Positions 17,438 to 37,363 of a stretch of DNA of 64,000 nucleotides are shown one piece after another. Each line of letters opens with the position of its first letter. Position 1 is the first letter of the stretch. This DNA comes from Escherichia coli (lineage in GTDB: Bacteria; Pseudomonadota; Gammaproteobacteria; Enterobacterales; Enterobacteriaceae), in assembly GCF_011045215.1 (NCBI RefSeq), contig NZ_CP049201.1. One strand, given 5' to 3'. Below the pieces are notes generated by a model. It saw only the letters and a program-made list of their open reading frames with translations. It was not told where the DNA came from and made no database searches. Made by a program: the position numbers and the translations under genes.

Positions 17438-17929
17438 ATGGCAATTCCAGTTTATCTGTGGCTGAAAGATGATGGCGGTGCAGATATCAAAGGGTCCGTG
17501 GATGTTCAGGACCGTGAGGGCAGCATTGAGGTGGTGGCTCAGGAGCACTGCCTCTACATCCCGACGGATAACAACACCGGTAAGCTGACCGGTACCCGTA
17601 TTCACACACCGTTCCTGTTTACCAAGGAAATTGATTCTTCCAGCCCGTACCTTTACAAGGCCGTGACCACCGGGCAGACCCTGAAGTCTGCTGAATTTAA
17701 GTGGTACAAAATCAATGACGCCGGTCAGGAGGTGGAGTACTTCAATACGAAGCTTGAGAACGTGAAGGTGGTGAAGGTTAATCCGGTCATGCACGACATC
17801 AAGAATCCCACCTACGAGAAGCATAACCACCTTGAACAGGTGGAACTGCGCTACGAGAAAATCACCTGGACCTACAAGGACGGCAACATCATTCATTCCG
17901 ACGCATGGAGTGAACGTACCACCGCGTAA
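17438..17929 (+). CDS. hcp: T6SS tube protein Hcp (TssD)
   Basis: 163 aa; MAIPVYLWLKDDGGADIKGSVDV start is the classic Hcp N-terminus; GGAG RBS. Confidence 0.9.
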   Translation: MAIPVYLWLKDDGGADIKGSVDVQDREGSIEVVAQEHCLYIPTDNNTGKLTGTRIHTPFLFTKEIDSSSPYLYKAVTTGQTLKSAEFKWYKINDAGQEVEYFNTKLENVKVVKVNPVMHDIKNPTYEKHNHLEQVELRYEKITWTYKDGNIIHSDAWSERTTA

Positions 17930-17936
17930 TTCTCCC

Positions 17937-17975
17937 GGACGGGCAGGGCATCCTGTCCGTCATTTTTATTTTTTC
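17937..17975 (+). terminator. Intrinsic terminator-like hairpin plus T-run after hcp
   Basis: GGACGGGCAGG-GCAT-CCTGTCCGTC stem followed by ATTTTTATTTTTT. Confidence 0.55.
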
Positions 17976-18097
17976 TTCAGCATCTGTTGGCGGGTGCTGA
18001 AGAAAAAATTCTCAATCCTGAACACAGACCTGATGCGCCTGGGTTACGGCGAAGGGCGGTAGCGTGCCTGACGGTCTCCTGACAGTGAGTGAATAAC

Positions 18098-20785
18098 ATG
18101 GAAAATTCGGCAGCTCTGTTACGTCGTCTTAATCATTACTGTGCCCGTGCACTGGAAGGCGCAGCCTCCCTTTGCCAGACCCGGGCCCATGCAGAAATCA
18201 CCCCGGAGCACTGGTTACTGAAACTGCTGGAGCAGGGGGAAGGAGACCTTACCGTGCTGGGCCGGCGTTATGGCTGGGATATGGACGCGATATGGCAGTC
18301 GCTGCTCGGCTGGCTGGATAACCAGCCCCGTAGCGTACGCAGTCGCCCGCAGCTTGCGCCGTCCCTGAATGCCCTGCTGAAACAGGCCTGGATGGTGGCC
18401 TCATTACAGGGGGAAGAACATATCCGCAGCGTGCATCTGCTGGGTGCCCTGACGGAACATCCGCACCTGGTTCGCTGTGACGGGCTGTGGCCCCTGCTGA
18501 CACTGAGTCAGAGTCAGTTGCAGCGTCTGTCCCCGCTGCTGGATGCGCAGTCTGATGAGTGTCCGGAGAGATTACAGGATGCAGAGCCTGTGCTGCCTCA
18601 GGGAGACAATGTGACCTTTATCGGGCGCCCCGTCGGTGCGGATACGGCGGGTATACCGTCAGGTGACCTGCCGCCTGTGTTACAGAGTGCGCTGGATAAA
18701 TTCACCCGGGACATCACGGCCAGTGCGAGAGAGGGTAAAATTGACCCGGTATCGGGGCGCGATACGGAAATCCGCCAGATGGTGGATATTCTCTCCCGCC
18801 GCCGCAAGAATAACCCGATTCTGGTGGGGGACCCCGGTGTGGGGAAAACGGCTCTGGTGGAAGGGCTCGCCCTGCGTATTGTGGAAGGTAACGTACCGGA
18901 ATCACTCAGACCCGTCACCCTGCGCACCCTTGACCTCGGCCTGCTGCAGGCCGGTGCCGGCGTGAAGGGGGAATTTGAACAGCGCCTGAAAAACGTGATT
19001 GATGCCGTGCAGCAGTCACCGGCTCCTGTTCTGTTGTTTATAGATGAAGCCCATACCCTTATCGGGGCCGGTAATCAGGCTGGCGGCGCGGATGCGGCGA
19101 ACCTGCTGAAGCCTGCGCTGGCGCGGGGTGAACTGCGCACCATTGCCGCCACCACCTGGTCTGAGTACAAACAATACCTGGAACGTGACGCGGCCCTGGA
19201 GCGGCGTTTTCAGATGGTCAGAGTGGACGAGCCGGATGATGAGACGGCCTGTCTGATGCTACGCTCCCTGAAATCCCGTTATGCGGAACATCATAACGTG
19301 CATATCACCGATGAGGCGGTACGTGCTGCCGTCACACTGTCGCGCCGTTATCTGACAGAACGTCAGTTACCGGACAAGGCCGTTGACCTGCTTGATACCG
19401 CTGCTGCCCGTGTGCGTATGAGCCTCGACACGGTGCCGGAACAGCTGACCCGTATCCGTTCACAGCTCGCCTCCCTCGGTATGGAAAAACAGGCACTGCT
19501 GGAAGATATTGCCGTTGGTCATCAGAATCACGGCGAACGCCTGTCTGCCATTGAGCAGGAAGAGAATGTGCTGATGACAGCACGTGATGACCTGGAGCAG
19601 CAGTACGCCCGGGAGTGCGAACTCACCGGTGAGTTACTTGAAAGCCGCAGCGATATTTCCCGCCAGAGTGAGACACATCACCTGCAGCAGGCACTGCACG
19701 ACATTCAGCAGAATCAGCCCCTGCTCAGTGTGGATGTTGATGTACGCACCGTGGCCGGTGTGGTCGCGGACTGGACCGGGGTGCCGTTATCCTCACTGAT
19801 GAAGGACGAACAGACGGAACTGCTGCATCTGGAAAAGGATATCGGCAGACGGGTGGTCGGACAGGACGTGGCACTGGAATCCATTGCACAGCGTCTGCGT
19901 GCGGCGAAAACGGGTCTGACATCCGGTAACGGCCCCCAGGGGGTGTTCCTGCTGGTTGGCCCCAGTGGTGTGGGAAAAACTGAAACGGCACTGGCACTGG
20001 CAGACGCGATGTACGGCGGCGAAAAATCACTGATTACCATCAATCTGTCGGAATATCAGGAGCCCCATACGGTTTCCCAGCTTAAGGGCTCACCGCCCGG
20101 GTACGTGGGATACGGTCAGGGGGGGATTCTGACGGAGGCTGTGCGTAAACGCCCTTACAGCGTGGTGCTGCTGGATGAAGTGGAAAAGGCCCACCGGGAT
20201 GTGCTGAATCTGTTTTATCAGGTATTTGACCGGGGCTTTATGCGCGACGGCGAGGGGCGTGAAATTGACTTCCGTAATACGGTCATACTGATGACCTCCA
20301 ACCTGGGCAGTGACCTTCTGATGCAGCAACTGAGCGAAAAGCCGGAGACAACGGAATCGGAGCTGCATGAGCTTATCCGTCCACTGCTGCGCGACCACTT
20401 CCAGCCTGCCCTGCTGGCTCGCTTTCAGACCGTGATTTACCGTCCGCTGACACAGTCTGCCATGCGCATCATTGTGGAGATGAAGCTTGCACAGGTCTGT
20501 GAACGCCTGCACTGCCATTATGGACTGAGTACATCGGTTGATGAACGTGTGTACGATGCCCTGACATCAGCCTGCCTGCTGCCGGATACGGGCGCCCGGA
20601 ATGTGGAGAGTCTGCTGAACCAGCAACTGCTGCCGGTACTGAGCCGGCAGTTGCTCAGCTATCTTGCTGCCAGACAGCATCCGACGTACCTGTCTCTGAC
20701 GTGGAATGATGAGGATGGTATTGTGATAGCGTTTGATGGAATCAATAGCGATTATCCGCAGGAAAGCATATATGGACAGTGCTAA
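18098..20785 (+). CDS. clpV: T6SS AAA+ ATPase ClpV (TssH)
   Basis: Two AAA+ modules with Walker A GDPGVGKT and GPSGVGKT, Walker B LLFIDEAH and VVLLDEVEKA, ClpB-like N-domain. Confidence 0.93.
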   Translation: MENSAALLRRLNHYCARALEGAASLCQTRAHAEITPEHWLLKLLEQGEGDLTVLGRRYGWDMDAIWQSLLGWLDNQPRSVRSRPQLAPSLNALLKQAWMVASLQGEEHIRSVHLLGALTEHPHLVRCDGLWPLLTLSQSQLQRLSPLLDAQSDECPERLQDAEPVLPQGDNVTFIGRPVGADTAGIPSGDLPPVLQSALDKFTRDITASAREGKIDPVSGRDTEIRQMVDILSRRRKNNPILVGDPGVGKTALVEGLALRIVEGNVPESLRPVTLRTLDLGLLQAGAGVKGEFEQRLKNVIDAVQQSPAPVLLFIDEAHTLIGAGNQAGGADAANLLKPALARGELRTIAATTWSEYKQYLERDAALERRFQMVRVDEPDDETACLMLRSLKSRYAEHHNVHITDEAVRAAVTLSRRYLTERQLPDKAVDLLDTAAARVRMSLDTVPEQLTRIRSQLASLGMEKQALLEDIAVGHQNHGERLSAIEQEENVLMTARDDLEQQYARECELTGELLESRSDISRQSETHHLQQALHDIQQNQPLLSVDVDVRTVAGVVADWTGVPLSSLMKDEQTELLHLEKDIGRRVVGQDVALESIAQRLRAAKTGLTSGNGPQGVFLLVGPSGVGKTETALALADAMYGGEKSLITINLSEYQEPHTVSQLKGSPPGYVGYGQGGILTEAVRKRPYSVVLLDEVEKAHRDVLNLFYQVFDRGFMRDGEGREIDFRNTVILMTSNLGSDLLMQQLSEKPETTESELHELIRPLLRDHFQPALLARFQTVIYRPLTQSAMRIIVEMKLAQVCERLHCHYGLSTSVDERVYDALTSACLLPDTGARNVESLLNQQLLPVLSRQLLSYLAARQHPTYLSLTWNDEDGIVIAFDGINSDYPQESIYGQC

Positions 20786-21413
20786 AGAAATTGCCCGGGA
20801 TATGCTGGAGTCCGTAAATATTAATGGGGATGGGTTTCTGGGGGCCGTCGGGAAGGGGCTCATATCTTTGCCAGTCAGTCTCGGTTATATGGGATATGAT
20901 TTTACAGATACCGGGCATAGGCGGGAAAACCAGAATGACAAATTCAGAATGGCCAGACTGGTAGAAAAAGGCATTTTCAGCCGTGATATTATTGGGAAAA
21001 TTATCAGTATTTGTCTTGAAGACTTTGTATCCCGGATCAATATGGAAAAAATAGGCTCCATTGTGAAGAACGTTTCAGGAGATCTGGCAGGTAGAATGGC
21101 ATTTGCTGAATTGACCGGGGTTAAACTGGGAGAGGCTCTGGTATCCAGAGGGCTGGCTGCTTTTTTTGCAGGGAGTTTTGCCGGGTTGTTATTATCTGTT
21201 GGCGCAGAGACATCGCGTGCGATTTACACATCCCGTTTTCTGAAAGACAGAAATCCGGTGTTGCATGATAAGCTGAAAGCTCAGGGGGATTTGGATCTTT
21301 TGTACTTCCTTGTTGAAGATATTGTGCGCCCGTTTGAACGAGCCTGTATTGTCGCAGACCGAAATTCGGCTGAGTTTGACCGGATATGCGAATATTTTTT
21401 CGGTGGTTTATGA
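20774..21413 (+). CDS. Hypothetical protein with a Gly/Ala-rich hydrophobic segment (putative membrane-active effector)
   Basis: 213 aa from MDSAKEIARD; segment GLAAFFAGSFAGLLLSVGAET; located between clpV and vgrG; function not recognised. Confidence 0.45.
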
Positions 21414-21637
21414 AGATAAAAAGAACATTACTTATAATGCTTTCCCGATTTATCCGTGGCGCAGGTATGGGGTTAGGTGCGTCGGGTATTGTATTTACAG
21501 TCTGGTTCTTTTTTCTCTCATCTTCTGAATTTAAATATCTGTGGGGAGGGCTCTCTGTTGCGTTATTTTTTGTCGGTTATCTGATGTATCGATTTGCATA
21601 TGCATATATTTACGATGAATGGGATGATTATCAGTAA
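21410..21637 (+). CDS. Small two-TM membrane protein (putative cognate immunity)
   Basis: 75 aa, ATG overlaps the upstream stop (ATGA); two hydrophobic helices GMGLGASGIVFTVWFFFL and LSVALFFVGYLMY. Confidence 0.4.
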   Translation: MKIKRTLLIMLSRFIRGAGMGLGASGIVFTVWFFFLSSSEFKYLWGGLSVALFFVGYLMYRFAYAYIYDEWDDYQ

Positions 21638-21715
21638 TTCTCTCTGAAAATAAAGCTTAACGGTCATCATTATATAATTGCAGTTCAATACCGGTACAGA
21701 CATGGAGTTAACAAT

Positions 21716-24238
21716 ATGAGTCTGACAGATACACTTTCAAAAACTATCTCTGTTTCCCTGAATCGTTACCATTTAATTATTCCCTCCTGCCCGTCACCAC
21801 TGGATGTTGAGCATTTCAGCGGCAGGGAGGAGATGAGTCAGACCTATTATTACATCATCAATTTTACCAGTACTGACAACGACCTGGATGCCGGGCTGCT
21901 GCTGCGTAAATCAGCCACATTTACAATGGGTACGGGAGGGCTTAAGGAGCAGGTGAGCCAGAAAGTAGTACATGGTGTCATTACAGATTTTCGCCGTATA
22001 TCGGGCTCCGCCGACCAGGCAAAATACCAGGTGATACTGGAACCATTTATTAAACTACTGGACAGGCAGCATCGTTCTCACCGATTTTTCGTTAACAAAT
22101 CGGTGCCGGAGGTGGTGACAGAGGTTCTCCAGGAGCACGGTCTGAAAGGCTGGGAGTTTGAGTTCCGTCTCAAAAAAACGTATCCGAAGCGTGAACAGAT
22201 TAACCAGTATCAGGAAAGTGACCTGCAATTTATTCAGCGTTTGCTGGCTGAAGTGGGGATTTTTTATTTTTTCACCCTGCAACCGGACACGCAGACGGAA
22301 GTGGTGCATTTTGGTGACAGCCAGGCAGCGCTGACGTTTGATAAGACGCTGGCGATAAACAGTCCGTCCGGAATGAATGATAACAGAGCGGATTCAGTGT
22401 GGGGGCTGAATGTGACGCACAATGTGGCAGAGGCTAGTGTCACCACAAAGGCTTATAACCATCGTGAAGCACAATATCTGTTGCAGTCCGCCCCGGCAGA
22501 CATGACGCATGGTGATGGTGACGGAATTAACTATGGTGAGGTGTACCACTACCATTTCCGTCATCTGGAACGGGGGGATAAAATCGACCCGGTGCCGGAG
22601 ACGGCCAATTTTTATGCCCGCCTTGGTCATGAACGCTATCTGGCGGAGCAGGTACGGATAACCGGTAACAGTACAGACGCCACGCTGGCACCTGCTCAGG
22701 TTCTGACTATCACCGACAGTCTTCCGCCGACGTTGCCTGCGCTGCTGCGCAATCCGGTGTTGCTTACCTGTGTCGGTTTTTCTGCAAGTCGCAAGGATGC
22801 CCTGCAGGTTGTACTGAAGGGCGTTCCTTACAGTGAAGTTATCTGCTGGCGTCCTCCTTTACTGCCCCGTCCGAAAGTTACCGGTACCATGACGGCCCGT
22901 GTGACCAGTGCAAAAGAAGGGGATATCTACGCCTGGCAGGATGCATCAGGTATGTACCGGGTGAAATTTGATGCTGACCGTGATGATAAAAATCCAGGAC
23001 AGGAAAGTATGCCGGTACGTCTGGCCAAACCCTACAGTGGTGATGCTTATGGTTTTCATTTTCCGCTGATTCAGGGAACGGAAGTGGCCATTGCTTTTGA
23101 GGAAGGTGATCCGGATCGTCCCTATATTGCGCATGCCCTGCATGATTCACGTCATGTTGATCACGTTACCGATAAGAACGGTACGCGCAATGTTATCCGT
23201 ACGCCAGCAAATAACAAATTGCGAATGGAGGATAAGCGCGGCGAGGAGCATATCAAGCTCAGTACCGAGTATGGCGGTAAGACACAACTTAATCTTGGCC
23301 ATAACGTTGATGAGGAGCGGGTGGTTAGAGGAGAAGGTGCAGAGTTGCGCACTGATGATTGGGTGGCAATTCGGGGGGGGAAAGGGATTTTATTAAGTGC
23401 CGACGCTCAACCAAATGCTGATGGTGTAATGCTTGATATGCATAAAGCTATACAGCAGTTGGAACATGCTCTTGCTCTTGCAAAAAGCCTCGGCAAAGCA
23501 GCTGAGACAGCAAAAGCAACTTCGGCAGATTCAGATAGCCAGTCTATTTTGAAAAGTGCGCTGTCCGGGTTGCAAAAACCAGGGATATTAGCACATTCAC
23601 CTATGGGAATTGGTGTGGTAACTCCAGAAGCAGTACGGATTGCTTCTGGAAATCAGAGTGTAGGAATAGTTTCTGGTCGTAATACGGATATTACTGCAGC
23701 TCAGTCAGTAACTGTTGCGGCATCGAATTCTGTCAGCCTATTTGCGCAAAGTGCGGGGATGCAACTTTTTGCAGGGCAGGGCAAAGTGGATGTGCAGGCT
23801 CAGGGAGATGCGCTGAATCTCCAGGCACTAAAGGACGTCACAGTTACTAGTAATCGTGGTAGTGTAACGTTAAGCGCTAGTAAGGAGTTAACTCTTGTTT
23901 GTAATGGTGCTTACATCAAGATCAGTGGCGGAAATATCGAACTTGGATGTCCAGGTAATATTCTGCTTAAATCTGCGAATGTGCAAAAAATGAGAGCGGC
24001 AAACTTAAATCTATCTCCTCAGGTGTTGCCTAAAGGATTCAAGGGAGGATTTACAATAACTAATCAGGATACGGGGGAAGTGATGCCGTACATCCTTTAT
24101 AAGATAACTACCGCAGAAGGTGATGTTTATTCAGGTACAACAGATAAACTTGGCAATACCATGCCAATTTATACAGCGTCGCCATCATTAATGAAAATTG
24201 AGTTTCCTCTAAGCAGTGAACAAGGAGGGGCATTATGA
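21716..24238 (+). CDS. vgrG: T6SS spike protein VgrG (TssI) with C-terminal extension
   Basis: 840 aa, longer than a minimal VgrG; gp27/gp5-like N-terminal region then repeat-rich beta-prism region and an extra C-terminal tail of about 100 aa. Confidence 0.9.
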   Translation: MSLTDTLSKTISVSLNRYHLIIPSCPSPLDVEHFSGREEMSQTYYYIINFTSTDNDLDAGLLLRKSATFTMGTGGLKEQVSQKVVHGVITDFRRISGSADQAKYQVILEPFIKLLDRQHRSHRFFVNKSVPEVVTEVLQEHGLKGWEFEFRLKKTYPKREQINQYQESDLQFIQRLLAEVGIFYFFTLQPDTQTEVVHFGDSQAALTFDKTLAINSPSGMNDNRADSVWGLNVTHNVAEASVTTKAYNHREAQYLLQSAPADMTHGDGDGINYGEVYHYHFRHLERGDKIDPVPETANFYARLGHERYLAEQVRITGNSTDATLAPAQVLTITDSLPPTLPALLRNPVLLTCVGFSASRKDALQVVLKGVPYSEVICWRPPLLPRPKVTGTMTARVTSAKEGDIYAWQDASGMYRVKFDADRDDKNPGQESMPVRLAKPYSGDAYGFHFPLIQGTEVAIAFEEGDPDRPYIAHALHDSRHVDHVTDKNGTRNVIRTPANNKLRMEDKRGEEHIKLSTEYGGKTQLNLGHNVDEERVVRGEGAELRTDDWVAIRGGKGILLSADAQPNADGVMLDMHKAIQQLEHALALAKSLGKAAETAKATSADSDSQSILKSALSGLQKPGILAHSPMGIGVVTPEAVRIASGNQSVGIVSGRNTDITAAQSVTVAASNSVSLFAQSAGMQLFAGQGKVDVQAQGDALNLQALKDVTVTSNRGSVTLSASKELTLVCNGAYIKISGGNIELGCPGNILLKSANVQKMRAANLNLSPQVLPKGFKGGFTITNQDTGEVMPYILYKITTAEGDVYSGTTDKLGNTMPIYTASPSLMKIEFPLSSEQGGAL

Positions 24239-26145
24239 GTGAGTCAAAAACATCTGCTGTAGGAACATTCAGTAAAGCCCATGCTCCTGCGCAAAAGAAA
24301 TGCTGGATTGAAATTCAGCTGGTTGATGAGAATGATAACGCTGTAGCTAATATGCCATGGCGAGGGGAGAATGAAGCTACTCGTGATAAAGTTATTGAGC
24401 CTTATAGCGGAGTTACTGATTTAGATGGTATTTTGAGGATCGATGATTTGCTTCACCCAGATCTTACTCTTTTTGTTGAAGCTCAACCACTTGTTGACGA
24501 AATGGAGCATAGACCTTTAAGTATAGAGAGAACATGTTCCTATTCGATGAAAAATTCACCAGTAACTGTTGATAAGCGGACCAATAATATTTGTTATTAT
24601 GTAGTTGTCGGTCAATTGTGCGATAAAGCTCCAAGTATACCTGGTTGGAATAGTAAAGAATTACCTGCCTTTCATTTTCCCGATCGTGATTTTTCAGGAC
24701 TAACTATTTCAAATGCGTACTTTAATTCGAGAGTTATAGTAAAAGTATGTCCATTTAGAGCATGGAATTTACTTCTTCATCATGCAAAGGATTACTCTAT
24801 TGTAAATGCGTTTAATTTGGGGCTTTTAGCTGAATTTGTTTATTCTGACAAAGAAAAAATCCTGTCCTTTTTTAATGAGCAGTGTCAAGATTTATCTAAA
24901 GTTCCTAGTATGCTCTATGAAACCATTTCTGTTGATGTGCCGTTTAGAGAACGTTATGTAAATCCAGTATTTCTTGATACTACAGAAGGTGATTTTGGAG
25001 AAGGGGGGACCCAGCTTTTCTTCGTCAGCAATTTGACTAAGCTATTAGTCGGCTGGAGAGGTACTGAGCCAGATAAACTAGCAGATCTTATTACTGATGG
25101 GGCATTTAGGCCGGTGCCATGTCCAGATATAGTGCCATCAGGTCATTGTCACAAAGGTTTTTTAGATGCATTTAATTTAGTTGGAAAAAAATTCAGGGAC
25201 CAACTCAAACAAATTCAGAGTTTGTCGAGTGGCCGTGAATTATTTATTGCAGGACATAGCTTAGGCGGTGCATTAGCTCTAATTCATGCTGCTGTGTTGC
25301 GTGATTATCAACCAATAATCTATACATATGGAATGCCGCGAGTATTTACGGCATCGGCTATTAATAAAATTAAAAATATTTCTCACTATAGACACGTTAA
25401 TGATTCAGATTCAGTAACAAGCATTCCACCGGAGTTAGAGTTAGATAATAAACTCTATGATCTTTGGGGACCTTACGGTGTTGTCTATGGATTTGTTGGT
25501 TCTGTTTTGGCTATGGGAATTCAAGGCGCAGGAATAAAGTTTGGTGATCCTTATTGGCACCATGGTAGCACTGTCTGCTTTTTTAAGGTTGAGCAGTCTA
25601 TTGTTAAGCGTTTAAAAAGAATTATGCCGCTTATAGGCATGGATGTTAAAAAACCATATATATCAATAAGGGAGATCTCATTTGACAAATGTAAGCTATA
25701 TCTTGTTCCAGATCTTAATGAGAAAATGTTTTGCGCTACAGCAGAGGAGCAAAATAATTTTGTGAAAAGTTTGTCCCCTGAAAGTTTAAGATGCTATTTT
25801 CCTAAAAATAGTAATCCAGAACTTGATTCTTGGACAAATCCAATAAATCATTCCATGTCAAACAAATACATGCCTTTTATTAATAATGAGCTGATTGAGC
25901 TAACAGATCCTGAGCGACCAATGGAAAGAAAACTGAATAGGAAAAAATTTTCAATTGCTGTTGATAATGCAGCGAAGTTAACAGAAAGCACTTCGAAGCA
26001 TGAGCTGGAAAGAAATAAGAACTTTTTATTGTTGCAAGATATGTTGCCAAAAACATTAGAAATATCAAAGTCAGAAAATAACTGGGTGAATGCATTGATT
26101 AGATTTAAAAATAGTGCAAAGGAAGAGTATGAGAATATTAATTAA
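24235..26145 (+). CDS. Putative T6SS phospholipase/lipase effector (class-3 lipase-like, GHSLGG nucleophile motif)
   Basis: 636 aa; start overlaps the vgrG stop; GHSLGGALALIHAA at about 25252..25290 is a GxSxG alpha/beta-hydrolase nucleophile elbow; AT-rich relative to the core genes. Confidence 0.75.
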   Translation: MSESKTSAVGTFSKAHAPAQKKCWIEIQLVDENDNAVANMPWRGENEATRDKVIEPYSGVTDLDGILRIDDLLHPDLTLFVEAQPLVDEMEHRPLSIERTCSYSMKNSPVTVDKRTNNICYYVVVGQLCDKAPSIPGWNSKELPAFHFPDRDFSGLTISNAYFNSRVIVKVCPFRAWNLLLHHAKDYSIVNAFNLGLLAEFVYSDKEKILSFFNEQCQDLSKVPSMLYETISVDVPFRERYVNPVFLDTTEGDFGEGGTQLFFVSNLTKLLVGWRGTEPDKLADLITDGAFRPVPCPDIVPSGHCHKGFLDAFNLVGKKFRDQLKQIQSLSSGRELFIAGHSLGGALALIHAAVLRDYQPIIYTYGMPRVFTASAINKIKNISHYRHVNDSDSVTSIPPELELDNKLYDLWGPYGVVYGFVGSVLAMGIQGAGIKFGDPYWHHGSTVCFFKVEQSIVKRLKRIMPLIGMDVKKPYISIREISFDKCKLYLVPDLNEKMFCATAEEQNNFVKSLSPESLRCYFPKNSNPELDSWTNPINHSMSNKYMPFINNELIELTDPERPMERKLNRKKFSIAVDNAAKLTESTSKHELERNKNFLLLQDMLPKTLEISKSENNWVNALIRFKNSAKEEYENIN

Positions 26146-26890
26146 GAACATGATGTACATCTTTTCTTTTTTTTTGTTAGGGTGTGATAAAAATGAGTCA
26201 TTGAATCCTCCATCCAATGGTGAAATGGTTTCTGTAATTGCAAAGATGCCAGCGGGCAGTAAAATATTGCCATTGGAAATTATGTATCGTTCAACCACTT
26301 GCTTGAAGAGTCGTAAAGATTCAAATGGAGGTATAGTAAAAGAACCAGGATATTATTTTGTCAAGAAAGAATTCAATTCTGTATCAGACGATAATATATT
26401 TAATCTGAAGATTCCACGTGATGGTGGAGGGCAGTGTAACTGGGAGTTAAGCAACATAACGTTAGGGTTCTATTTAAAAGAACTTCCTTCAGGTAAAGAT
26501 GAAAAGAGTGAGAATATACCAATTAAAGAAATTATTGTGTTTGATGATAATTCACCTCAGCGGCTAAGTGGAACATACGAGATTATTAATGGAGATGTTA
26601 CACTGAAAGAGAATTACTTTCCTTTAATTACAAAGCGCAGGAATAGCAATACCTTATTGGAATATTCCATTGTCAGGTCTTCACCAGATGTGATTTATAA
26701 ATCAACATCGGCAAAAAAAGTTATTTTTGAACCAAGGATTCATTTTTCAAAAGTTTTACGCGCGACAGAACCGACAGGGCAAAAAGTCGGAGTGTATATG
26801 TCGGTGTTGTATCCTGATGGAACTATCGAGAATGGGCCATATTTCCCTAATTACAAAAAACTTCAGTTCCTTGAGAGAGGTAATGATTGA
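26129..26890 (+). CDS. Lipoprotein, putative immunity protein for the lipase effector
   Basis: Signal peptide with lipobox MRILIKNMMYIFSFFLLGC; overlaps the effector 3-prime end; same low GC. Confidence 0.6.
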   Translation: MRILIKNMMYIFSFFLLGCDKNESLNPPSNGEMVSVIAKMPAGSKILPLEIMYRSTTCLKSRKDSNGGIVKEPGYYFVKKEFNSVSDDNIFNLKIPRDGGGQCNWELSNITLGFYLKELPSGKDEKSENIPIKEIIVFDDNSPQRLSGTYEIINGDVTLKENYFPLITKRRNSNTLLEYSIVRSSPDVIYKSTSAKKVIFEPRIHFSKVLRATEPTGQKVGVYMSVLYPDGTIENGPYFPNYKKLQFLERGND

Positions 26891-27493
26891 TTATTTATAA
26901 TTAATTTCTGTATTTTTAGATTGAATGTTTTATGTATCTGTGAATGCGTGGTGTTCCGAATCGGATTTTGCGTTATTATTTCTAATGTCGTAATTAAAGA
27001 GAAAGAGTTTAGCTAAAACGATTGTTTTCATTCTAAACATAGAGTAAATATGAAGTGTTTTTTATCAAGTCTACGAACTCTCAGTATTATGTTTTTTGTG
27101 CCGATTATATTTTTCATCTTTCAGTACGAATGCTGGAGTAAGTGATAGTTTTGATTTGCTTATAATTGGGGGATTGTTTCTCATTATCTTGGTTAGCAAA
27201 TCCATTTATTATAGAAGTAATCAAGATAAATAATTTATTATATTTATAATTGTCCCTGGTGTCATTTTTATTGTTCATTTCTTTCTTAGAAGTTAAAGGC
27301 ATTATTGTGAAGGTTGGGAAGGGAAAATGTTAATAATGTTTTATGGCTTGGGATATTGGATGTGAGAGTCATGCTTCATTTAGCATGATGTTAACTCAAA
27401 ATATCGACATTCATTAGCGTAAAAATTAAAATAATGAATATCTCTGATTAATTGTTGTCTTAATTTATATCGTCTTATAAAGTTGAGGTGTGG

Positions 27494-27760
27494 ATGTCAA
27501 GTAGTTTTGTTTTGCTGGGTGATAAAACAACTCATGGTGGCGAAGTGATCTCAGCTTCTTCAACCATGATTGTCGATGGTAAAAAAGTAGCTCTTGTCGG
27601 AGATATGGTTAGTTGTCCTGTTTCCGGACATGGTACTAATCCTATTGTGGAGGGCTCTCCTGAATGGATATCTGATGGAAGAGCTGTTGTGATTGATGGA
27701 TGTAAATGTCTGTGTGGGTGTAAGGTTATATCCAGTGCACCGGAATGTGCAATAGGATAA
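27494..27760 (+). CDS. PAAR-domain spike-tip protein
   Basis: About 88 aa, Gly/Cys-rich with PAAR-like motifs (VSCPVSGHG, GCKCLCGCK); GAGG RBS before the ATG. Confidence 0.8.
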   Translation: MSSSFVLLGDKTTHGGEVISASSTMIVDGKKVALVGDMVSCPVSGHGTNPIVEGSPEWISDGRAVVIDGCKCLCGCKVISSAPECAIG

Positions 27761-27763
27761 AAC

Positions 27764-28912
27764 ATGGGATGGAGCAGAACAAAATCATTATCAACAGAAT
27801 TACCTCATAAACCATCAATGATGTTGTGGTTTATGACAGGGGCATTTATGGCTGTTGTTGGTGCTCTGTTGTTTATTATCCGGGCATCAGGATATGTGAA
27901 AGCATTAAATAATTTCAGTATCTGGTGGCTTGCATTGACTCCTCCGGGGAGCTGGTTTTTCCTGTTTTGCCTGCGACACTGGCAGTGGAGCAACCAGATG
28001 GATGAACATTTGTTTCTTAAAAAAGAGGGGGAGTATGCTCAGAAACAGTGGGAATCCTGGGCCGAAAGGTATCTTGTTATTACTGCCAGTTGTGTTTATT
28101 TGCCTGATAAAATAACGGTAGCTACTCTTTGTGATGAATTGCCTCTGCAGTATGGCCTTGTAAAGAAAATAGATTATCTTTCTGACAGTGGGCATAAGGT
28201 TGAAGCCTCTTTACGTGTCTTGCTTAGGGAGATAACGGATAAATTTTGTCAGTTACCTGCCGCTCTCCCTGTAAATGTGACGCTGATAACCGATCAGCCT
28301 GATTCTGAAATCAGATCTGCTTTTGTTTCTGCATGGGAAGCGTTATTTCCCCAACGCGTCGTTCCTGACAATATTGAGGTTACTCCCGACTTTTCCATGG
28401 GGTGGGGTGATGAGCGTCTGAAACAACCAGTGCTGACTGTGGATTTGATACTGGTAATACAGCTTAATGGGGGAAATGCATACTCTGACGGACTGGCTGC
28501 ACTTTTGTTGACCAGCGATGATGTTGCGCAAAAATATAATCTGCCGCATTCAGCCCGTCTGCTACGCCCGATGTCGCTGGATATCAACAAGTTTAATGAT
28601 GAATTCACACTTTTCCTTGAAACCCAGACAGCTGCCTGTCGTACCGCTCGTGTACTGGGGGACTGTTATCACTGGGAAAAGATTGCTGCACCGCTGATGA
28701 CTATTGGAAACCAGTATGGTGCCGGATGGGAACCGTCCGGACGTATGTTACTGGAAAAATGGTGCGGTATCCCGGGACCTGCTGCTCCGTGGCTGCTTAC
28801 TGCTCTGGCAGCCGATCTGGTCTGTCTTGGTAATGATTCTCTCCTGACTTTATTCTCATCCGGAGAAGAACATTTTATCAGTACTGTTACATCAGGAAAC
28901 CAGAATGAATAA
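27764..28912 (+). CDS. T6SS-associated inner-membrane protein of unknown function
   Basis: 382 aa with two N-terminal TM helices; 3 bp after PAAR and overlapping the tssM start. Confidence 0.55.
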   Translation: MGWSRTKSLSTELPHKPSMMLWFMTGAFMAVVGALLFIIRASGYVKALNNFSIWWLALTPPGSWFFLFCLRHWQWSNQMDEHLFLKKEGEYAQKQWESWAERYLVITASCVYLPDKITVATLCDELPLQYGLVKKIDYLSDSGHKVEASLRVLLREITDKFCQLPAALPVNVTLITDQPDSEIRSAFVSAWEALFPQRVVPDNIEVTPDFSMGWGDERLKQPVLTVDLILVIQLNGGNAYSDGLAALLLTSDDVAQKYNLPHSARLLRPMSLDINKFNDEFTLFLETQTAACRTARVLGDCYHWEKIAAPLMTIGNQYGAGWEPSGRMLLEKWCGIPGPAAPWLLTALAADLVCLGNDSLLTLFSSGEEHFISTVTSGNQNE

Positions 28913-31900
28913 ACTGGCCTGTCTGTCTGGTCGCTTTGGGCGACCGGGGATTGTATTTATTGGTGTGGCTGCGCTCTGGTGGCTGATAACCCGATATGGA
29001 GCATATCTGGGGGCAGAAACACGCCGGGATCAAATACTACTGCTGATATTGCTGAGTCTGGGGTTGCTCTTTGTCTGTTACCTGCCTGTGATGAAAAAAT
29101 ATGTTCAGGAACTGACATATCGACGCAGGGCCCGTAAGGAGCAAAGGTTACCTGACGATGAAGAGCGACTGGCTCAGACGCCACCGCGCTATGTTACTGT
29201 TCAGGATATTCGTCATACTCTGCGGCGCCAGTATGGCAGATTCTGGGGACGTAAGATACGCATTCTGTTGATAACAGGTACCGCCTCTGAGGTTGAGTTG
29301 TTGACCCCGGGCCTGACAGAACAGTTCTGGCAGGAAGAGCAGGGGACATTGCTTCTCTGGGGAGGAGACCCCTCGCAGCCGGAAAACGCAGACTGGCTGG
29401 CTGCGTTACGCCGTCTGCGTTACCGGCCTGCTGATGGCATTGTCTGGGTAACTTCCGGACTGAGTGAAACATTATCCGCACCACTTACAGAAGATGCCCT
29501 TGACAGGGTTTCCCGTGCAGTCAGTTCATGTTGTGAGCGCCTTGGCTGGCGTCTGCCGCTGTATGTCTGGTCACTGCAGGAGAGTCCGGATGAGCGTGGG
29601 CGTATTACTCAGCCCGTGGGATGCCTTCTGCCGGCAGAATGTCGTTCTGACAAACTGAAAGCACAACTACAGGCCATGCTCCCCGGGCTTGTTACTCAGG
29701 GGATACAGCAGATATGCAGTGCCCCTCGGTATTATTTTTTGTTGTCGCTGGCAGAGCGATTCAGACGAAATATTGATGCTGTGGTGGAGCCATTATCCGT
29801 ATTACTCCGTTCATACCGTCAGTTGTTGCTGGCGGGTATTGTTTTCAGTCCGGCAACTGTCGGTGGTGAACGAAGTGTCAGACATCGCTGGCGAATGGAT
29901 AACCGCTGGGAGGCGTTGCCGGAGACAGTGCAGCAATTACCTGTCCGGCTACAGCCTTCCCGCACAGGTCATAACTGGCGCAGAAGCCTGACTGTTATGG
30001 CGGTCATACTGATGATGGCTCAGGGAACAGGAATGGTGGTTTCCTTTCTGGCAAACCGGAGTCTGGTTGCTGAAGTACAGGAACAGATTCGTCCAGTTCA
30101 GAACCAGCAACAGTCTCTTACAGAACGTCTGCAGGCGTTGCTGAATCTGCAGAAATCCCTGGCCCGCCTTCAGTATCGTGAGGAGCACGAGGCGCCATGG
30201 TACCTGCGGGCCGGTATGAATCAGAATGCAGACCTGCTCGCGGTCGTAATGCCTCTTTATGCACAAAATGCACATCTTTTACTGCGTGATGCCGCTGCTG
30301 CTCATCTTGAGCAGCAGCTCAGAATATTTATTCGTCTTCCTCCGGACAGCCCGCAGCGGGGGAAAATGGCAAAAGCCGCCCGTGACCAGCTCAGACTGTA
30401 TCTGATGCTGGCGCAACCGCAACATATGGAGTCCGCCTGGTTCAGTCGTACGCTCATGCGGGAATGGCCACAGCGTGACGGTGTGAGTGCCGGTTTCTGG
30501 CAGGCTAACGGCCCGACGCTGCTGGCGTATTATGCCTCCGGGCTTATTACCCATCCTCAGTGGAAGCTGACAGTTGATGAAGAGCTGGTCAGCCAGAGCA
30601 GGACTCTGCTGCTTCGCCATATGGGAACACAGAACAGCGATGCCATGCTGTATCAGAAAATGCTGGCACGGGTGGCACATCAGTTTGCGGATATGCGTCT
30701 GACGGATATGACCGGTGATACTGATGTCTCCCGCCTCTTTTTCACCGATGAAGTGGTCCCCGGTATGTTTACCCGCCAGGCCTGGGAAGAGGCCGTATTG
30801 CCGGCCATAGATACCGTGATTAATGAGCGTCGTGAAGAAATGGACTGGGTACTGACTGATGGCAGGCAGAAGACACCGTCACCGGTATCGCCGGAAGCAC
30901 TCAGACAGCGCCTGAAAACGCGCTATTTTGCTGATTTTGGTAATGCCTGGCTGAATTTTCTGAACAGTCTGCAGTTACGCCGGGCTCAGACGCTGTCTGA
31001 TGTGACAGAGCAGCTGACGCTGATGGCTGATGTGCGCCAGTCCCCCCTGGTTGCACTGATGAATACGCTGGCGGTTCAGGGGCGTACTGGTCAGCCCCGG
31101 GAAGCAGTTACTGATTCACTGGTTAAATCTGCCAGAAACCTGCTTTCACAGGAAAAACAGCCGGTGACAGCACAGGAAAGCCGGCTTCACGGTCCTCTGG
31201 CGACGACTTTCGGGCCGGTGCTTGCACTGATGGATAATCAGAACAACAGCGCGGATATGCTGAATCTGCAGACGTATCTGATCCGGATTACACAGGTTCG
31301 TCTGCGTCTGCAACAGATTGCCGGCTCTTCTGACCCGCAGGCCATGATGCAGATGCTGGCACAGACAGTATTGCAGGGGAAATCGGTTGATTTAACTGAT
31401 ACCCGGGATTACGGCAGCCTGGCCGCTGCCGGACTCGGACAGGAGTGGTATGGCTTCGGACAGACGGTCTTTGTTCGCCCGATGGAGCAGGCGTGGCAGC
31501 AGGTTCTTACACCCGCGGCAGAAAGTCTGAATACCCGGTGGCGTACTGCGGTGGTGGATGGCTGGAATAATGCATTTTCCGGGCGTTATCCGTTTAAAAA
31601 TGTCAGCAGCGATGCTTCACTTCCCCTGCTGGCAAAATACCTGAATACGGACACGGGACGTATTGCCCGTTTTCTGCAGAATAACCTGAGTGGTGTGTTG
31701 CGCAGGGAAGGCAATCGCTGGGTACCGGATACCATTAATACCCGGGGGCTGACATTCAACCCTGCGTTTCTGAAAGCCATCAATACCCTGAGTGAAATAG
31801 CAGATGTGGCGTTCACCACAGGTAACGCGGGGCTGCATTTTGAGCTGCGACCGGGAACTGCTGCCGGTGTGATGCAGACGACGCTGATAACCGATAATCA

Positions 31901-32294
31901 GAAACTGATTTATGTTAATCAGATGCCGGTATGGAAGCGATTTACCTGGCCGGCTGATACGGAAGCACCTGGCGCCAGTTTAAGCTGGGTAAGCACTCAG
32001 GCCGGTACCCGTCAGTATGCAGACCTGCCGGGAAGCTGGGGGCTGATACGTCTGCTTGAGATGGCCCGACGGAAAGCCGCACCGGGCGTTGCCAGTGGCT
32101 GGAGCCTGAGCTGGCAGGCGCAGGACGGTCGTATGCTGAATTACACACTGCGAACTGAAGCGGGGGAAGGGCCGCTTGTATTGCTGAAACTCCGCAATTT
32201 TGTTCTGCCGGAAACGGTTTTCGAACTCTCCGGTACGTCAGCGTTTACAGGCAATGACGAAGATGCCGGGGATTCCGTGGAGGAGACTGACTGA
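28905..32294 (+). CDS. tssM: T6SS membrane-complex protein TssM (IcmF-like)
   Basis: 1129 aa with N-terminal TM helices and large periplasmic region; size and position match IcmF/TssM. Confidence 0.88.
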   Translation: MNKLACLSGRFGRPGIVFIGVAALWWLITRYGAYLGAETRRDQILLLILLSLGLLFVCYLPVMKKYVQELTYRRRARKEQRLPDDEERLAQTPPRYVTVQDIRHTLRRQYGRFWGRKIRILLITGTASEVELLTPGLTEQFWQEEQGTLLLWGGDPSQPENADWLAALRRLRYRPADGIVWVTSGLSETLSAPLTEDALDRVSRAVSSCCERLGWRLPLYVWSLQESPDERGRITQPVGCLLPAECRSDKLKAQLQAMLPGLVTQGIQQICSAPRYYFLLSLAERFRRNIDAVVEPLSVLLRSYRQLLLAGIVFSPATVGGERSVRHRWRMDNRWEALPETVQQLPVRLQPSRTGHNWRRSLTVMAVILMMAQGTGMVVSFLANRSLVAEVQEQIRPVQNQQQSLTERLQALLNLQKSLARLQYREEHEAPWYLRAGMNQNADLLAVVMPLYAQNAHLLLRDAAAAHLEQQLRIFIRLPPDSPQRGKMAKAARDQLRLYLMLAQPQHMESAWFSRTLMREWPQRDGVSAGFWQANGPTLLAYYASGLITHPQWKLTVDEELVSQSRTLLLRHMGTQNSDAMLYQKMLARVAHQFADMRLTDMTGDTDVSRLFFTDEVVPGMFTRQAWEEAVLPAIDTVINERREEMDWVLTDGRQKTPSPVSPEALRQRLKTRYFADFGNAWLNFLNSLQLRRAQTLSDVTEQLTLMADVRQSPLVALMNTLAVQGRTGQPREAVTDSLVKSARNLLSQEKQPVTAQESRLHGPLATTFGPVLALMDNQNNSADMLNLQTYLIRITQVRLRLQQIAGSSDPQAMMQMLAQTVLQGKSVDLTDTRDYGSLAAAGLGQEWYGFGQTVFVRPMEQAWQQVLTPAAESLNTRWRTAVVDGWNNAFSGRYPFKNVSSDASLPLLAKYLNTDTGRIARFLQNNLSGVLRREGNRWVPDTINTRGLTFNPAFLKAINTLSEIADVAFTTGNAGLHFELRPGTAAGVMQTTLITDNQKLIYVNQMPVWKRFTWPADTEAPGASLSWVSTQAGTRQYADLPGSWGLIRLLEMARRKAAPGVASGWSLSWQAQDGRMLNYTLRTEAGEGPLVLLKLRNFVLPETVFELSGTSAFTGNDEDAGDSVEETD

Positions 32295-33892
32295 TGGCTT
32301 CCATTCATTCGCTCCTCAGTGCATGCCAGACGACACCCCGGGATGTGGCTGAACCGGCTCAGGTGCGTATTGTGCTGTGGGATAAATGGCTTGCTCCCGT
32401 GACGCCAGATAATCCCGCAGGTGATGATGCGGGGTACGATGATGATTTTCAGCAGATGCGTGAAGAGGTCAATAAATTCTCCGGAGCCGATGCCGGAATA
32501 GTCAGCCAGCTTGCAGAAAAATTACTGACCACCAGAACCAAAGATATCCGGGTGGCGACCTGGTATATCTGGGCCCGTCTGCGGCAGGATGGTGAAAAAG
32601 GTCTGGCCGACGGTCTGGAGCTGCTGACCGGTTTGTTGCAGCGTTTTGGAGAGCACCTGCATCCACAACGGTCACGGGCCAGGAAGGCGGCGCTGGAGTG
32701 GTTATGCAGCGCCCGCATACTGGACAGTCTGTCTCTGTATCCGGAGGTGGTGAAGGCGGATACCCTGCGCATTGCCGGGGCGCTGTGGCTGGCAGAACAG
32801 ACCTTTACGGATGAGGCTTCCGCCCCGGTGCTGAACGGGTTATATCAGGCACTTGAAAATCGCCTGATGAAGGCCGGTGGTGTTGATGCAGTGGTGCCTC
32901 AGGAGGCTGCCGCGCCGGCACCGACGGTAACATCCGGCAGCGTCACGGCACTATCTGCCATCACCTCCGGACAGGAACTGCTGTCACAGGCTCGTGTTCT
33001 GGCAAAATATCTGCGTGACCAGCCTGAGGGCTGGCTGGCGGCTCATCGGCTGATGAAAAGCGTCCGGCATGACACGCTGCATCAGTTACCGCCGTTATCT
33101 GCTGATGGACGGACCCGTATTGCCCCACCGGGGCCGGACCGGCGTGCGTCACTGAAACGGTTGTATCTGCAGCAGAACTGGTTGTCACTACTTGAGCAGT
33201 GTGACGATATGTTTGCCCGGGGAGCCAGTCATCTGTGGCTGGACCTGCAGTGGTATATTCATCAGGCGCTGTTGCAGACCGGAAAAGAAAATTATGCTGC
33301 CATTATTCAGTATGACCTGAAAGGATTGCTTCTGCGCCTGCCGGGGCTTGAGACACTGGCTTTTAACGACGGCATGCCGTTTGCCGATGACGTGACGCTG
33401 AGCTGGATACAGCAGCAGGTGATGGAGTGTGGTGAACGCTGGGCGGAAGAACTTTCTGTAACGATAACGGCAGCTCCCGGAGATAACGACATTTTATCTC
33501 TTGAGCCGGAAGCCCTGCAGATTGCGGATAATGAAGGAACAGAAGCCGCTTTAAGCTGGTTACAGGCACGTCCCGGTATTCAGTCTGACCGCAGCAACTG
33601 GCTACTGCGCCTGTTGATGGCCCGTGTTGCCGAACAGACTGGAAAAAATGACCTTGCCCTGCATCTGCTTGCGGAGCTGGATGAACGTGCAACCCGGCTG
33701 ACCCTGTCACAATGGGAACCTGAACTGGTATTTGAAGTAAAAGCCCGCCGCCTGAAACTGTTGCGTATGAAGTCCGCAAAAACTGAAAGTGACAGAGTGC
33801 GTCTGCAACCTGATATGGAACATCTTCTTGCCGGGCTTATTGCTATTGATGCTGCCAGAGCTGCTGTGTTGTGCAATCCGGGAAGTTCATGA
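32294..33892 (+). CDS. tssA: T6SS protein TssA (ImpA N-terminal domain)
   Basis: 532 aa; N-terminal VTPDNPAGDDAGYDDDFQQMREEVNK is the ImpA_N signature. Confidence 0.8.
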   Translation: MASIHSLLSACQTTPRDVAEPAQVRIVLWDKWLAPVTPDNPAGDDAGYDDDFQQMREEVNKFSGADAGIVSQLAEKLLTTRTKDIRVATWYIWARLRQDGEKGLADGLELLTGLLQRFGEHLHPQRSRARKAALEWLCSARILDSLSLYPEVVKADTLRIAGALWLAEQTFTDEASAPVLNGLYQALENRLMKAGGVDAVVPQEAAAPAPTVTSGSVTALSAITSGQELLSQARVLAKYLRDQPEGWLAAHRLMKSVRHDTLHQLPPLSADGRTRIAPPGPDRRASLKRLYLQQNWLSLLEQCDDMFARGASHLWLDLQWYIHQALLQTGKENYAAIIQYDLKGLLLRLPGLETLAFNDGMPFADDVTLSWIQQQVMECGERWAEELSVTITAAPGDNDILSLEPEALQIADNEGTEAALSWLQARPGIQSDRSNWLLRLLMARVAEQTGKNDLALHLLAELDERATRLTLSQWEPELVFEVKARRLKLLRMKSAKTESDRVRLQPDMEHLLAGLIAIDAARAAVLCNPGSS

Positions 33893-34025
33893 GATGTCTG
33901 AATTATATTCATGTGTAATCTGATTAATGAAATCCGGCCTGCAGTTCAGTTCGGACGATTGTTTGAAGTATGGTTGAAGTCAGAGCGCGAGTCTCCGGAA
34001 CAGTTAGCTTTATTCTGAGAAGATA

Positions 34026-35789: not shown

Positions 35790-36844
35790 TTACCCGTTAC
35801 CGGAAACAGCTTCCGTATATTAATTTTTACCGCTTCTGTCAGTTACTGGAACAAAGCCAGCCAGACCAGCCTCCCATTGGCAGTGGCTGGCAGGCCCGTC
35901 AGGAAGCGGTTCGCTTTTGTCCATACCCGGGAATGGGGTTTCCTGCGAGTGAAATAAAAGACGCTGTAATTCCTGAAGAATCCCATCTGCCACCCACTGT
36001 ACATGTGACGTTTATGGGACTTTACGGGGTCACGTCTCCGTTGCCGGCACACTATATCAGTGATATTGCACAGCAGCGGGAAGGCCATGAGGCGGCAGCG
36101 GATTTTCTCGATATATTCAGTCATCGTCTGATCACCCAGTATTACCGTATCTGGCGCAAATATTCGTACCCGGCCACCTTTGAGGCGGGAGGGCAGGATA
36201 AAACGTCTCAGTATCTGCTCGGTCTGGCTAGGCTGGGGATCCCCGGATGTGCACAGAATATTGCCACGCCGGTATCGCGTTTTCTGGCGTTATTGCCCCT
36301 GATGTTGTTACCCGGAAGAACAGCTGAAGGGCTGACATCACTGGTAACGCTACTAGCTCCCGGAACACAGGCCCGTGTCTGGCATCATGACCGACGACGG
36401 ATCCCGCTGAAAACACCGCTGACCATGCGTGTTCATCATCCGGTCAGTCTGAAGAGTCGCCCGGTGATGGGCGATCATGCCACGGATGTGAACGGACAGG
36501 TGTTATTACAGCTTTCAACACAGACGGGCAGCGAGGTACAGGGCTGGTTACCGGGCGGGCAGCTGTATTCTGATTTGCTGGCGTTGTTGCACGTTTATCT
36601 GGGAAGCCGTCTGGATGTACGTCTGCAACTTTGTGTTGAGCGTTCACTGTTACCAGATGCCCGGCTCAGTTGCCGGCCGGCAGCCGGTAGTCCGCAACTG
36701 GGGCGCACGGCAGTAATGAGAACACAGGCAAAGATAACGAATTCAGCGGCACGCGTCATGACCATCAGTCTGGGGCGTTATCAGCGGGTTCAGGAACATT
36801 ATCAACGTAAGGAGACTCAGGAAAATGGCGATTATCGCTGGTAA
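35744..36844 (+). CDS. tssG: T6SS baseplate protein TssG
   Basis: 366 aa immediately after tssF with overlap; start codon uncertain. Confidence 0.78.
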   Translation: MHPVERKSQSAPARLITRYRKQLPYINFYRFCQLLEQSQPDQPPIGSGWQARQEAVRFCPYPGMGFPASEIKDAVIPEESHLPPTVHVTFMGLYGVTSPLPAHYISDIAQQREGHEAAADFLDIFSHRLITQYYRIWRKYSYPATFEAGGQDKTSQYLLGLARLGIPGCAQNIATPVSRFLALLPLMLLPGRTAEGLTSLVTLLAPGTQARVWHHDRRRIPLKTPLTMRVHHPVSLKSRPVMGDHATDVNGQVLLQLSTQTGSEVQGWLPGGQLYSDLLALLHVYLGSRLDVRLQLCVERSLLPDARLSCRPAAGSPQLGRTAVMRTQAKITNSAARVMTISLGRYQRVQEHYQRKETQENGDYRW

Positions 36845-37361: not shown

Positions 37362-37363
37362 CG

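Follow-up and report, generated by a model that had tools for sequence, protein, structure and literature searches.

A terminator-like hairpin, a conserved RNA helix and an internal ops element in the hcp-clpV spacer of Enterobacterales type VI secretion clusters

At the ops element, RNA polymerase pauses and is joined by RfaH, a paralogue of NusG. In the sci1 type VI secretion system (T6SS) cluster of EAEC, an ops element between hcp and clpV, named ops1, was identified by Taillefer, Desjardins and Cascales (bioRxiv 10.1101/2025.02.08.637259). Mutation of ops1 or of rfaH left a tssC-tssK reporter unchanged and drastically lowered a reporter placed after clpV, and sheath assembly was abolished by the ops1 mutation; the same authors noted that the placement of ops is conserved across enterobacteria, with E. 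amylovora among those listed (10.1101/2025.02.08.637259). An RfaH ChIP signal was observed at the tssH ops in UPEC CFT073 by Hustmyer et al. (2022, PMC9765446), who refer to "potential promoter regions of tssH". Both the ops element and the dependence on RfaH are already known at the EAEC locus, and the locus described here is the same one, with an identical GGCGGTAGCGTG between hcp and clpV. It differs in what has been described around that element: in the EAEC preprint the word terminator has 0 occurrences, the three RNA helices P1, P2 and P3 set out below are not described, and neither the passage of unmodified polymerase past hcp nor an internal promoter is addressed (10.1101/2025.02.08.637259).

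The classical ops/JUMPstart leaders (rfa, rfb, hly, kps and tra; RF01707) share with this locus the exact 12-nt ops, its position on the non-template strand and in untranslated RNA, and its location ahead of a lengthy operon, gained by horizontal transfer, for envelope or secretion functions. Most orthologues have CAGCGA immediately 5' of GGGCGGTAGCGTG, which recalls the JUMPstart 5' block CAGCGcA. In contrast to the classical leaders, ops here is operon-internal and lies 3' of a predicted intrinsic terminator, and the 18-nt centre of JUMPstart is absent. Two other T6SS loci resemble this one at the 3' end of hcp. In the hcp3-vgrG3 region of EHEC (h3R), a hairpin/terminator ~8 nt past the hcp stop stabilises hcp mRNA and limits the next T6SS gene; however, the T6SS is of another type, the next gene is vgrG, a promoter is predicted within the region, and RfaH and ops have 0 occurrences in the report (PMC13141884). 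In the polycistronic T6SS4 operon of Yersinia pseudotuberculosis, a GC-rich stem directly follows hcp and the hcp transcript is in large excess, but the stem was shown there to be a 3' protective loop after processing and no terminator, and RfaH again has 0 occurrences (PMC12503267).

That a highly expressed gene should end in an intrinsic terminator is in itself ordinary. The rpsO-t1-pnp junction has a highly expressed gene, a leaky terminator behind it and then a long conserved RNase III hairpin in the leader of the next gene, an arrangement that the hcp-clpV spacer resembles in having a candidate leaky terminator and then a long conserved hairpin before the next gene. Ratio-setting intercistronic terminators of this type are not known to have a dedicated elongation-factor loading step downstream of the terminator. 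Our literature search found no described hcp-clpV terminator for this cluster type, and a covariation-backed terminator that always lies upstream of an internal ops, together with conserved P2 and P3, appears not to have been described in the literature searched.

We analysed a 64-kb stretch of E. coli DNA (64,000 nucleotides, hereafter the window) with a type VI secretion cluster of the Sci-1 type. Strain F2_407_2_2 matches the region at 100% identity and E. coli 042 (EAEC), which has the same P1, P2 and ops, at 97.8%. The cluster begins with tssB and tssC, upstream of tssK (13712-15049), which is followed by tssL, by TagL with an OmpA domain (end 17432) and by hcp, encoding the tube protein, on the plus strand at 17438..17929 (TAA stop 17927-17929), as supported by the ORF list, a Pfam T6SS_HCP match (E 1.9e-35) and the RefSeq annotation of the identical sequence. 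A spacer of 168 nt, which holds the hairpins and ops, separates hcp from clpV/tssH (18098-20785, plus strand), whose start is annotated in a record identical here and whose ORF continues to 20785. The unit 3' of ops spans 18098..37795 on the plus strand, ~19.7 kb according to the ORF lists, Pfam and the RefSeq annotation of the closest record, and comprises in order clpV/tssH, a hypothetical gene, vgrG, tle1, tli1, PAAR, tssM, tssA, tssF, tssG, tssJ and tssE. Colinearity does not hold between the window and NZ_CP074756.1 (F2_407_2_2), the record that matches it best: the tssA-tssF spacer measures 133 nt in the window (33893-34025) and 700 nt in F2_407_2_2 (145409-146108), and the tle1 ORF lengths differ too. 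Coordinates carried over from NZ_CP074756.1 are therefore unreliable past ~24 kb.

Other features of the window lie outside the T6SS genes. A 12-bp GC-rich hairpin at 39875-39905, with AATAAAA before it and TTATTTTTTT a few bases after, occupies a spacer ahead of an ORF beginning at 39945; it resembles a bidirectional terminator, and no other site of this kind in the window is as strong. Past the T6SS, at approximately 44,000-61,000 by the annotation of a near-identical record, are genes for a GIY-YIG nuclease and a 3'-5' exonuclease, fragments of a second T6SS (ImpA and VasL pseudogenes) and a complete DNA phosphorothioation defence system (dptFGH, dndBCDE), followed by tia and leoCB.

The first element of the hcp-clpV spacer, P1 (17938..17961, plus strand), begins 8 nt past the hcp TAA and consists of a 10-bp stem, GACGGGCAGG (17938-17947) paired with CCTGTCCGTC (17952-17961), closed by the loop GCAU; it contains 7 G-C pairs and one G.U pair. 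Folded alone it reaches -19.1 kcal/mol (z = -7.5), and 0 of 200 shuffled sequences were equally stable. Directly 3' of the stem, on the sense strand, lies a U-rich tract, AUUUUUAUUUUUU, of the ~7-9 nt length expected of an intrinsic terminator; it belongs to the T-tract ATTTTTATTTTTT (A-T5-A-T6, 17962..17974, plus strand), the putative terminator U-tract, whose distal part doubles as the 5' strand of P2. P1 thus combines a stable GC-rich stem-loop, a sense U-tract and, as described below, compensatory changes, as intrinsic terminators do. An earlier note on this DNA had placed a GC-rich hairpin and T-run directly after hcp, and fold energy, shuffles and a strict terminator scan all bear this out; the stem it had drawn also stands, except that its 5' arm included one extra G. 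Judged by sequence, this hairpin with its T-run appears to be a genuine and conserved transcription terminator.

Under strict terminator criteria (a stem of 8 bp or more with 5 or more GC pairs, and 6 or more T within 8 nt), the 64-kb window contains 5 distinct terminator-like sites, whereas shuffled windows average 0.13, and P1 with its T-tract is the strongest such site within the T6SS cluster. A view of the hairpins as inverted repeats that arose by chance, or as a dispersed repeat (REP, ERIC or MITE), with no role here could draw on a loose terminator scan of the window, in which the 14 sites found are close to the 10.5 seen in shuffles, but this explanation is very improbable in view of the strict scan, the fold z of -7.5, the compensatory changes across genera, the single copy of the P2 core in the window and the median of one occurrence of the region in E. 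coli genomes. A regulated attenuator or riboswitch-type terminator was considered as well. No antiterminator overlapping the 5' arm of P1 was found, the fold of 17840-17976 keeping P1 in both the MFE and centroid structures, and no competing helix was found by RNAalifold across orthologous spacers; with no alternative structure seen and no Rfam leader match, this candidate was rejected. On the minus strand P1 is weaker (-14.0 kcal/mol) and no T-run follows it, and an upstream A-tract of the kind that would make P1 a bidirectional terminator is absent.

The second hairpin, P2 (17968..18009, plus strand), is a 19-bp helix of the form AUUUUUUCUUCAGCAUCUG-UUGG-CGGGUGCUGAAGAAAAAAU, in which 17968-17986 pairs with 17991-18009. 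Its core, CTTCAGCA (17975-17982) with TGCTGAAG (17995-18002), is lengthened to 19 bp by pairing of the flanking T6 and A6 runs; the earlier note had recognised the T and A flanks of this hairpin, and its true end lies 7 nt past the coordinate given there. P2 folded alone reaches -24.6 kcal/mol (z = -7.5), compared with -17.2 kcal/mol for the minus strand. Since an A-run follows the stem in both orientations, P2 is not a terminator on either strand; its flanks, T's upstream and A's downstream, are opposite to those of a bidirectional terminator. The reading of the spacer as terminator sequence put forward in the earlier note therefore keeps its force for the first hairpin and T-run, which have every sequence feature of an intrinsic terminator, but does not extend to the second. 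The P2 core occurs once in the window, and a dispersed repeat (REP/BIME, ERIC or MITE) was rejected as its origin, there being one window copy and a median of one place in each E. coli genome that has the region. A CsrA-type GGA loop motif in P2 is not conserved on inspection of the alignment A1 described below, and a function of the minus strand was likewise rejected: its folds are weaker, no T-run follows, and an antisense ORF at 17249-17896 is without support.

For P2, a decay barrier, the masking of an AU-rich RNase E target and an RNase III site may each be proposed as roles. The last of these would have RNase III split the hcp message from the clpV message in read-through RNA, in the manner of rpsO-pnp; it concerns P2 only and is compatible with the explanation that we favour for the spacer as a whole. 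The helix is uninterrupted over its 19 bp in the window, it is kept as RNA to judge from covariation and G.U pairs, and it lies directly after the putative terminator, like the RNase III hairpin behind the rpsO terminator. Against this, RNase III hairpins comprise ~20 bp or more of near-continuous pairing, 19 bp is at the lower size limit, and many orthologues have internal mismatches. RNase III and PNPase do affect the Yersinia T6SS4 (PMC12503267). Taken together, we regard processing at P2 as rather improbable.

Between P2 and the next helix lies a linker (18010..18035, plus strand) that is predicted to be unpaired and is C-rich and G-poor, with the orthologue consensus cACAAtCT...gACCtgATG. 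Over the ~30 aligned nt of this stretch, which include the last bases of P2, mean composition is 31% C and 16% G, and C exceeds G in 61/61 spacers. A Rho-loading site was considered here and set aside: the composition bias is real, but ~30 nt is too short to argue from. The third helix, P3 (18036..18051, plus strand), pairs CGCC (18036-18039) with GGCG (18048-18051) and ends 3 nt ahead of ops. By folding energy in the window alone P3 is not significant; in orthologues it encloses a variable insert, shows CG, GC and GU at one pair and UA and CG at another, and has 96.7% of cells paired (RNAalifold, pair counts). P3 ends 14 nt ahead of the pause position in ops (U11 = 18065), and as a speculation a nascent hairpin there could affect pausing or backtracking. 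For P2 and P3 together, our best guess is a decay barrier for the mRNA that also masks the AU-rich tract and influences the pause at ops.

The ops element itself, GGCGGTAGCGTG ("ops1" of EAEC sci1), is at 18055..18066 on the plus strand, which is the non-template strand for clpV, and serves as RfaH loading/pause site 31 nt before clpV. It had been overlooked in the earlier note and came to light through a weak JUMPstart match at 18047-18066 in a permissive Rfam scan. It is the sole exact match in the 64 kb to the 12-nt consensus GGCGGTAGnnTG, in the orientation of the downstream genes. Located ~80 nt past the T-tract, within the untranslated 168-nt spacer, it is followed by 19.7 kb of co-oriented genes, as expected for a long RfaH-controlled operon; its position, after six translated genes and the putative intrinsic terminator, is not that of a promoter-proximal 5' leader. 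No other ops was found upstream of tssB in the window. By analogy, the dependence of downstream expression on RfaH and ops, shown at the 97.8%-identical EAEC locus, would be expected here too.

At the gathering threshold, Rfam identified no family in the whole window or in 20 orthologous loci. Permissive scans gave only generic hairpin look-alikes (microRNA precursors, the terminator portion of the L20 leader) and the sub-threshold JUMPstart (RF01707) match, which scored 19.8 bits against a gathering threshold of 35 with 18 central model positions deleted, and so falls outside the family; the match is due to ops itself.

To elucidate how widely this arrangement is kept, loci were collected by a scan with the Hcp protein, one genome per species, which returned 80 loci from many genera, including Enterobacter, Klebsiella, Citrobacter, Kluyvera, Lelliottia, Pantoea, Erwinia, Serratia, Edwardsiella and Buttiauxella. 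Four E. coli loci were added, one with an Hcp 97% identical to that of the window and three of a second E. coli type, in which Hcp is ~82% identical and which is found in ~1,280 of 5,426 genomes, including UTI89, 536 and ATCC 25922. The ops element was present in 85/85 hcp loci including the window (80 hcp-clpV spacers and 5 further loci), ~120-320 nt past hcp. Its distance to the clpV start is 18-54 nt with a mode of 26-27, the exception being one locus with a gene inserted after ops; these ops-to-start-codon distances are the only use made of a second hairpin-scoring script, which often chose P2 over P1. By a simple scan, a hairpin with T-run was present in 73/80 hcp-clpV spacers, although some of the hits in long spacers with inserts do not represent P1 cleanly; in spacers of ordinary length the hairpin starts 3-16 nt past the stop.

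An alignment of 61 distinct orthologous spacers, each of at most 200 nt (A1), was folded with RNAalifold, which recovered P1, P2 as two segments, and P3 as a short third helix. Across the alignment 94.9% of cells are paired, as against 83.6% with partners shuffled and 36-49% with partners slid, and compensatory changes are seen in 18/25 pairs; 0 of 500 shuffles attained any of the observed measures. P1 shows changes on both sides in 6/10 pairs with 96.2% of cells paired, and the two segments of P2 covary, with both-side changes in 10/11 pairs, many of them involving G.U. Stem sequences differ by lineage while pairing is kept, as in GCGGACAG/CTGTCCGC, GCAGACGG/CCGTCTGC and GGCAGGCGG/CCGCCTGCC. 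Because G.U pairs are frequent and the minus-strand folds weaker, the structure is assigned to the sense RNA. At least 5 T among the first 8 nt after P1, including T's outside P2, are found in 58/61 orthologues, and in 58/61 the stem starts 5-9 nt past the stop codon; T-tracts are degraded in a few orthologues (L018, L026, L061 and L051). Dozens of genera preserve the stem, the T-tract and the 5-9 nt distance from the stop, which makes it very likely that these elements serve a function at the 3' end of hcp. Positions 1-9 and 11 of ops are invariant in all 61 aligned spacers; the variation seen is confined to position 12 (G to A or C) and, in a few loci, position 10 (CG to CA). The variant loci are L004:880-891 (E. 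coli O45:H2), L010, L054, L059, L065, L068, L076, L081 and L085.

Given these features, we proposed that P1 is an intrinsic (Rho-independent) terminator and the first element of a conserved ~165-nt leader consisting of P1, P2, the C-rich linker, P3 and ops, that it is leaky and boosts hcp, and that RfaH loads on the polymerases that read through; this explanation is probably correct. According to this mechanism, RNA polymerase would start at the single known promoter upstream of tssB without RfaH, and it should be RfaH-free on arrival at P1 because no ops lies upstream of tssB. A large fraction would stop at P1, where the hairpin would guard the 3' end, so that the tssB-to-hcp message would exceed the downstream message. 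The stem lies so near the stop, at 5-9 nt, that a close-following ribosome may hinder hairpin formation and help to set the read-through fraction. A ribosome terminating this near to the stem would cover the stem's first bases and could couple read-through to translation. Read-through polymerases would then cross ~90 nt of untranslated, mostly paired RNA, with P2 sequestering the U-tract, pause at ops and acquire RfaH, gaining resistance to pausing and Rho and the recruitment of ribosomes over the 19.7 kb from clpV to tssE. The RfaH step of this scheme was shown experimentally for the orthologous EAEC locus (10.1101/2025.02.08.637259).

We infer that termination at P1 is partial, and the conservation of P1 is most simply read as that of a device for making hcp in excess. 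Hcp is spent at each type VI firing and is needed far above ClpV, baseplate and membrane-complex proteins. Several points sit uneasily with the leaky-terminator explanation, however. The terminator looks strong in this lineage, which is at odds with a dependence on read-through, and TssK, TssL and TagL, none of them a high-copy component, are encoded upstream of it, so that stoichiometry is not a complete rationale. Moreover, characterised RfaH operons have ops in a 5' leader behind the promoter (PMC9765446), and in Yersinia T6SS4 mutation of the post-hcp stem altered hcp mRNA alone, with downstream transcripts unchanged (PMC12503267).

The Yersinia result is also the precedent for a different explanation, in which P1, perhaps with P2, is mainly a 3' stabiliser: the cluster would be transcribed as a single unit, an endonuclease would cut downstream, and 3'-to-5' exonucleases would stall at the hairpins, leaving a long-lived message that ends with hcp. 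There, what mutation of the GC-rich stem after hcp4 did was to lower hcp4 mRNA (PMC12503267), and deletion of the terminator region of EHEC h3R lowered hcp3 mRNA too (PMC13141884). Adjacent hairpins of -19 and -25 kcal/mol would block an exonuclease well, and P2 is conserved although it has no terminator features. A pure stabiliser needs no T-tract, however, yet one is kept after P1 in 58/61 orthologues, including T's that are not part of P2. The conservation of the T-tract after P1 indicates that termination is selected as well, and stabilisation as the main role of P1 is unlikely, if somewhat less so than processing by RNase III; the stabiliser and terminator roles do not exclude each other.

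Two natural variants of the tract were noted. In Rouxiella aceris (L051), the first 50 nt past the hcp stop keep a P1-like hairpin, GGGCGGGCC...GGGCCGCCC, but have lost the T-tract (TCATGTTCAG), while ops is kept; this natural hairpin without a terminator tail could separate a stabiliser from a terminator role. In E. coli 04-00955 (L087:328-494), a 7-nt deletion equivalent to window positions 17963-17969 takes away the T-tract's proximal half, so that CATTTTTC remains, a natural variant in which termination efficiency might be altered.

If P1 were instead a full terminator, clpV-tssE would be driven by a promoter of their own within the spacer, and ops would lie in a true 5' leader in the classical style. 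The well-studied RfaH targets all have a promoter-proximal ops, and RfaH was not loaded at ops-like sites inside translated operons (PMC9765446); the EHEC hcp3-vgrG3 region has been reported as a terminator plus promoter (PMC13141884), and P1 looks efficient. The space available is short, however, with only ~80 nt from the T-tract to ops, half of it the P2 helix. A sigma-70 consensus scan of the window found no match between the T-tract and ops, and the sole match in the window lies downstream of ops, over the clpV start. Among the 61 orthologous spacers no conserved sigma-70-like promoter (at least 8 of 12 matches) was found, the 7 weak, scattered matches having no common position. The hexamer CACAAT resembles a -10 element by eye, but without a -35 at 16-18 nt, and no sigma-54 pattern was seen by eye. 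In CFT073, sigma-70 ChIP reports peaks at three other new loci and none for tssH (PMC9765446). An activator-dependent or alternative-sigma promoter may still be present in the spacer; overall, we consider a separate promoter for clpV-tssE a poor candidate, about on a par with RNase III processing of P2.

Building on the leaky-terminator explanation, we advance a broader and more tentative proposal, less likely than that explanation itself: the hcp-clpV spacer would be a dedicated "terminate, then re-license" module across Enterobacterales, with P2, linker and P3 as functional parts and not as passive spacer. These would uncouple ribosome and NusG from the read-through polymerase, mask the U-tract and set a hairpin 14 nt behind the ops pause, so that RfaH loads inside the operon. 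If true, RfaH targets would gain a new architectural class, and the spacer would be a new type of structured RNA motif, not represented in Rfam.

A conserved terminator combined with an RfaH-loading site would explain how one promoter gives an excess of hcp as well as transcription of the full 20-kb horizontally acquired block, and it would show RfaH recruitment mid-operon past a terminator, extending the picture of promoter-proximal leaders. It makes 17930-18097 a stretch in which single mutations should retune T6SS stoichiometry, in E. coli as in Enterobacter, Klebsiella, Citrobacter, Pantoea, Erwinia, Serratia and Edwardsiella.

The internal ops is present in each of the Erwinia hcp-clpV spacers L040, L058, L059, L079, L080, L083 and L084. 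In a study of E. amylovora only 5' UTRs were searched, no ops was reported for T6SS-1, and a strong effect of rfaH on T6SS-1 was called indirect (PMC9562583); the internal ops offers a direct explanation for this effect.

In spacers of ~300 nt, an inserted sequence of ~120-130 nt lies between hcp and P1, with the terminator, P2 and ops kept downstream. Comparison with the ERIC1R and ERIC2 primer sequences, allowing at most 5 mismatches, placed an ERIC core in the insert of 11/15 long spacers (L016, L063, L009, L031, L047, L048, L055, L058, L027, L079 and L080), with the match ~40-85 nt past the hcp stop (locus positions ~3533-3580). Two loci have a small ORF between ops and clpV, at L088:1664-1999 in E. 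coli TUM1881 and at ~3727-4008 of L030 in Pantoea dispersa. RefSeq annotates it as a YoeB-family toxin, and the two proteins are 56% identical (E 9e-35) in these two distant lineages; the ORF would be cargo directly under RfaH-modified transcription.
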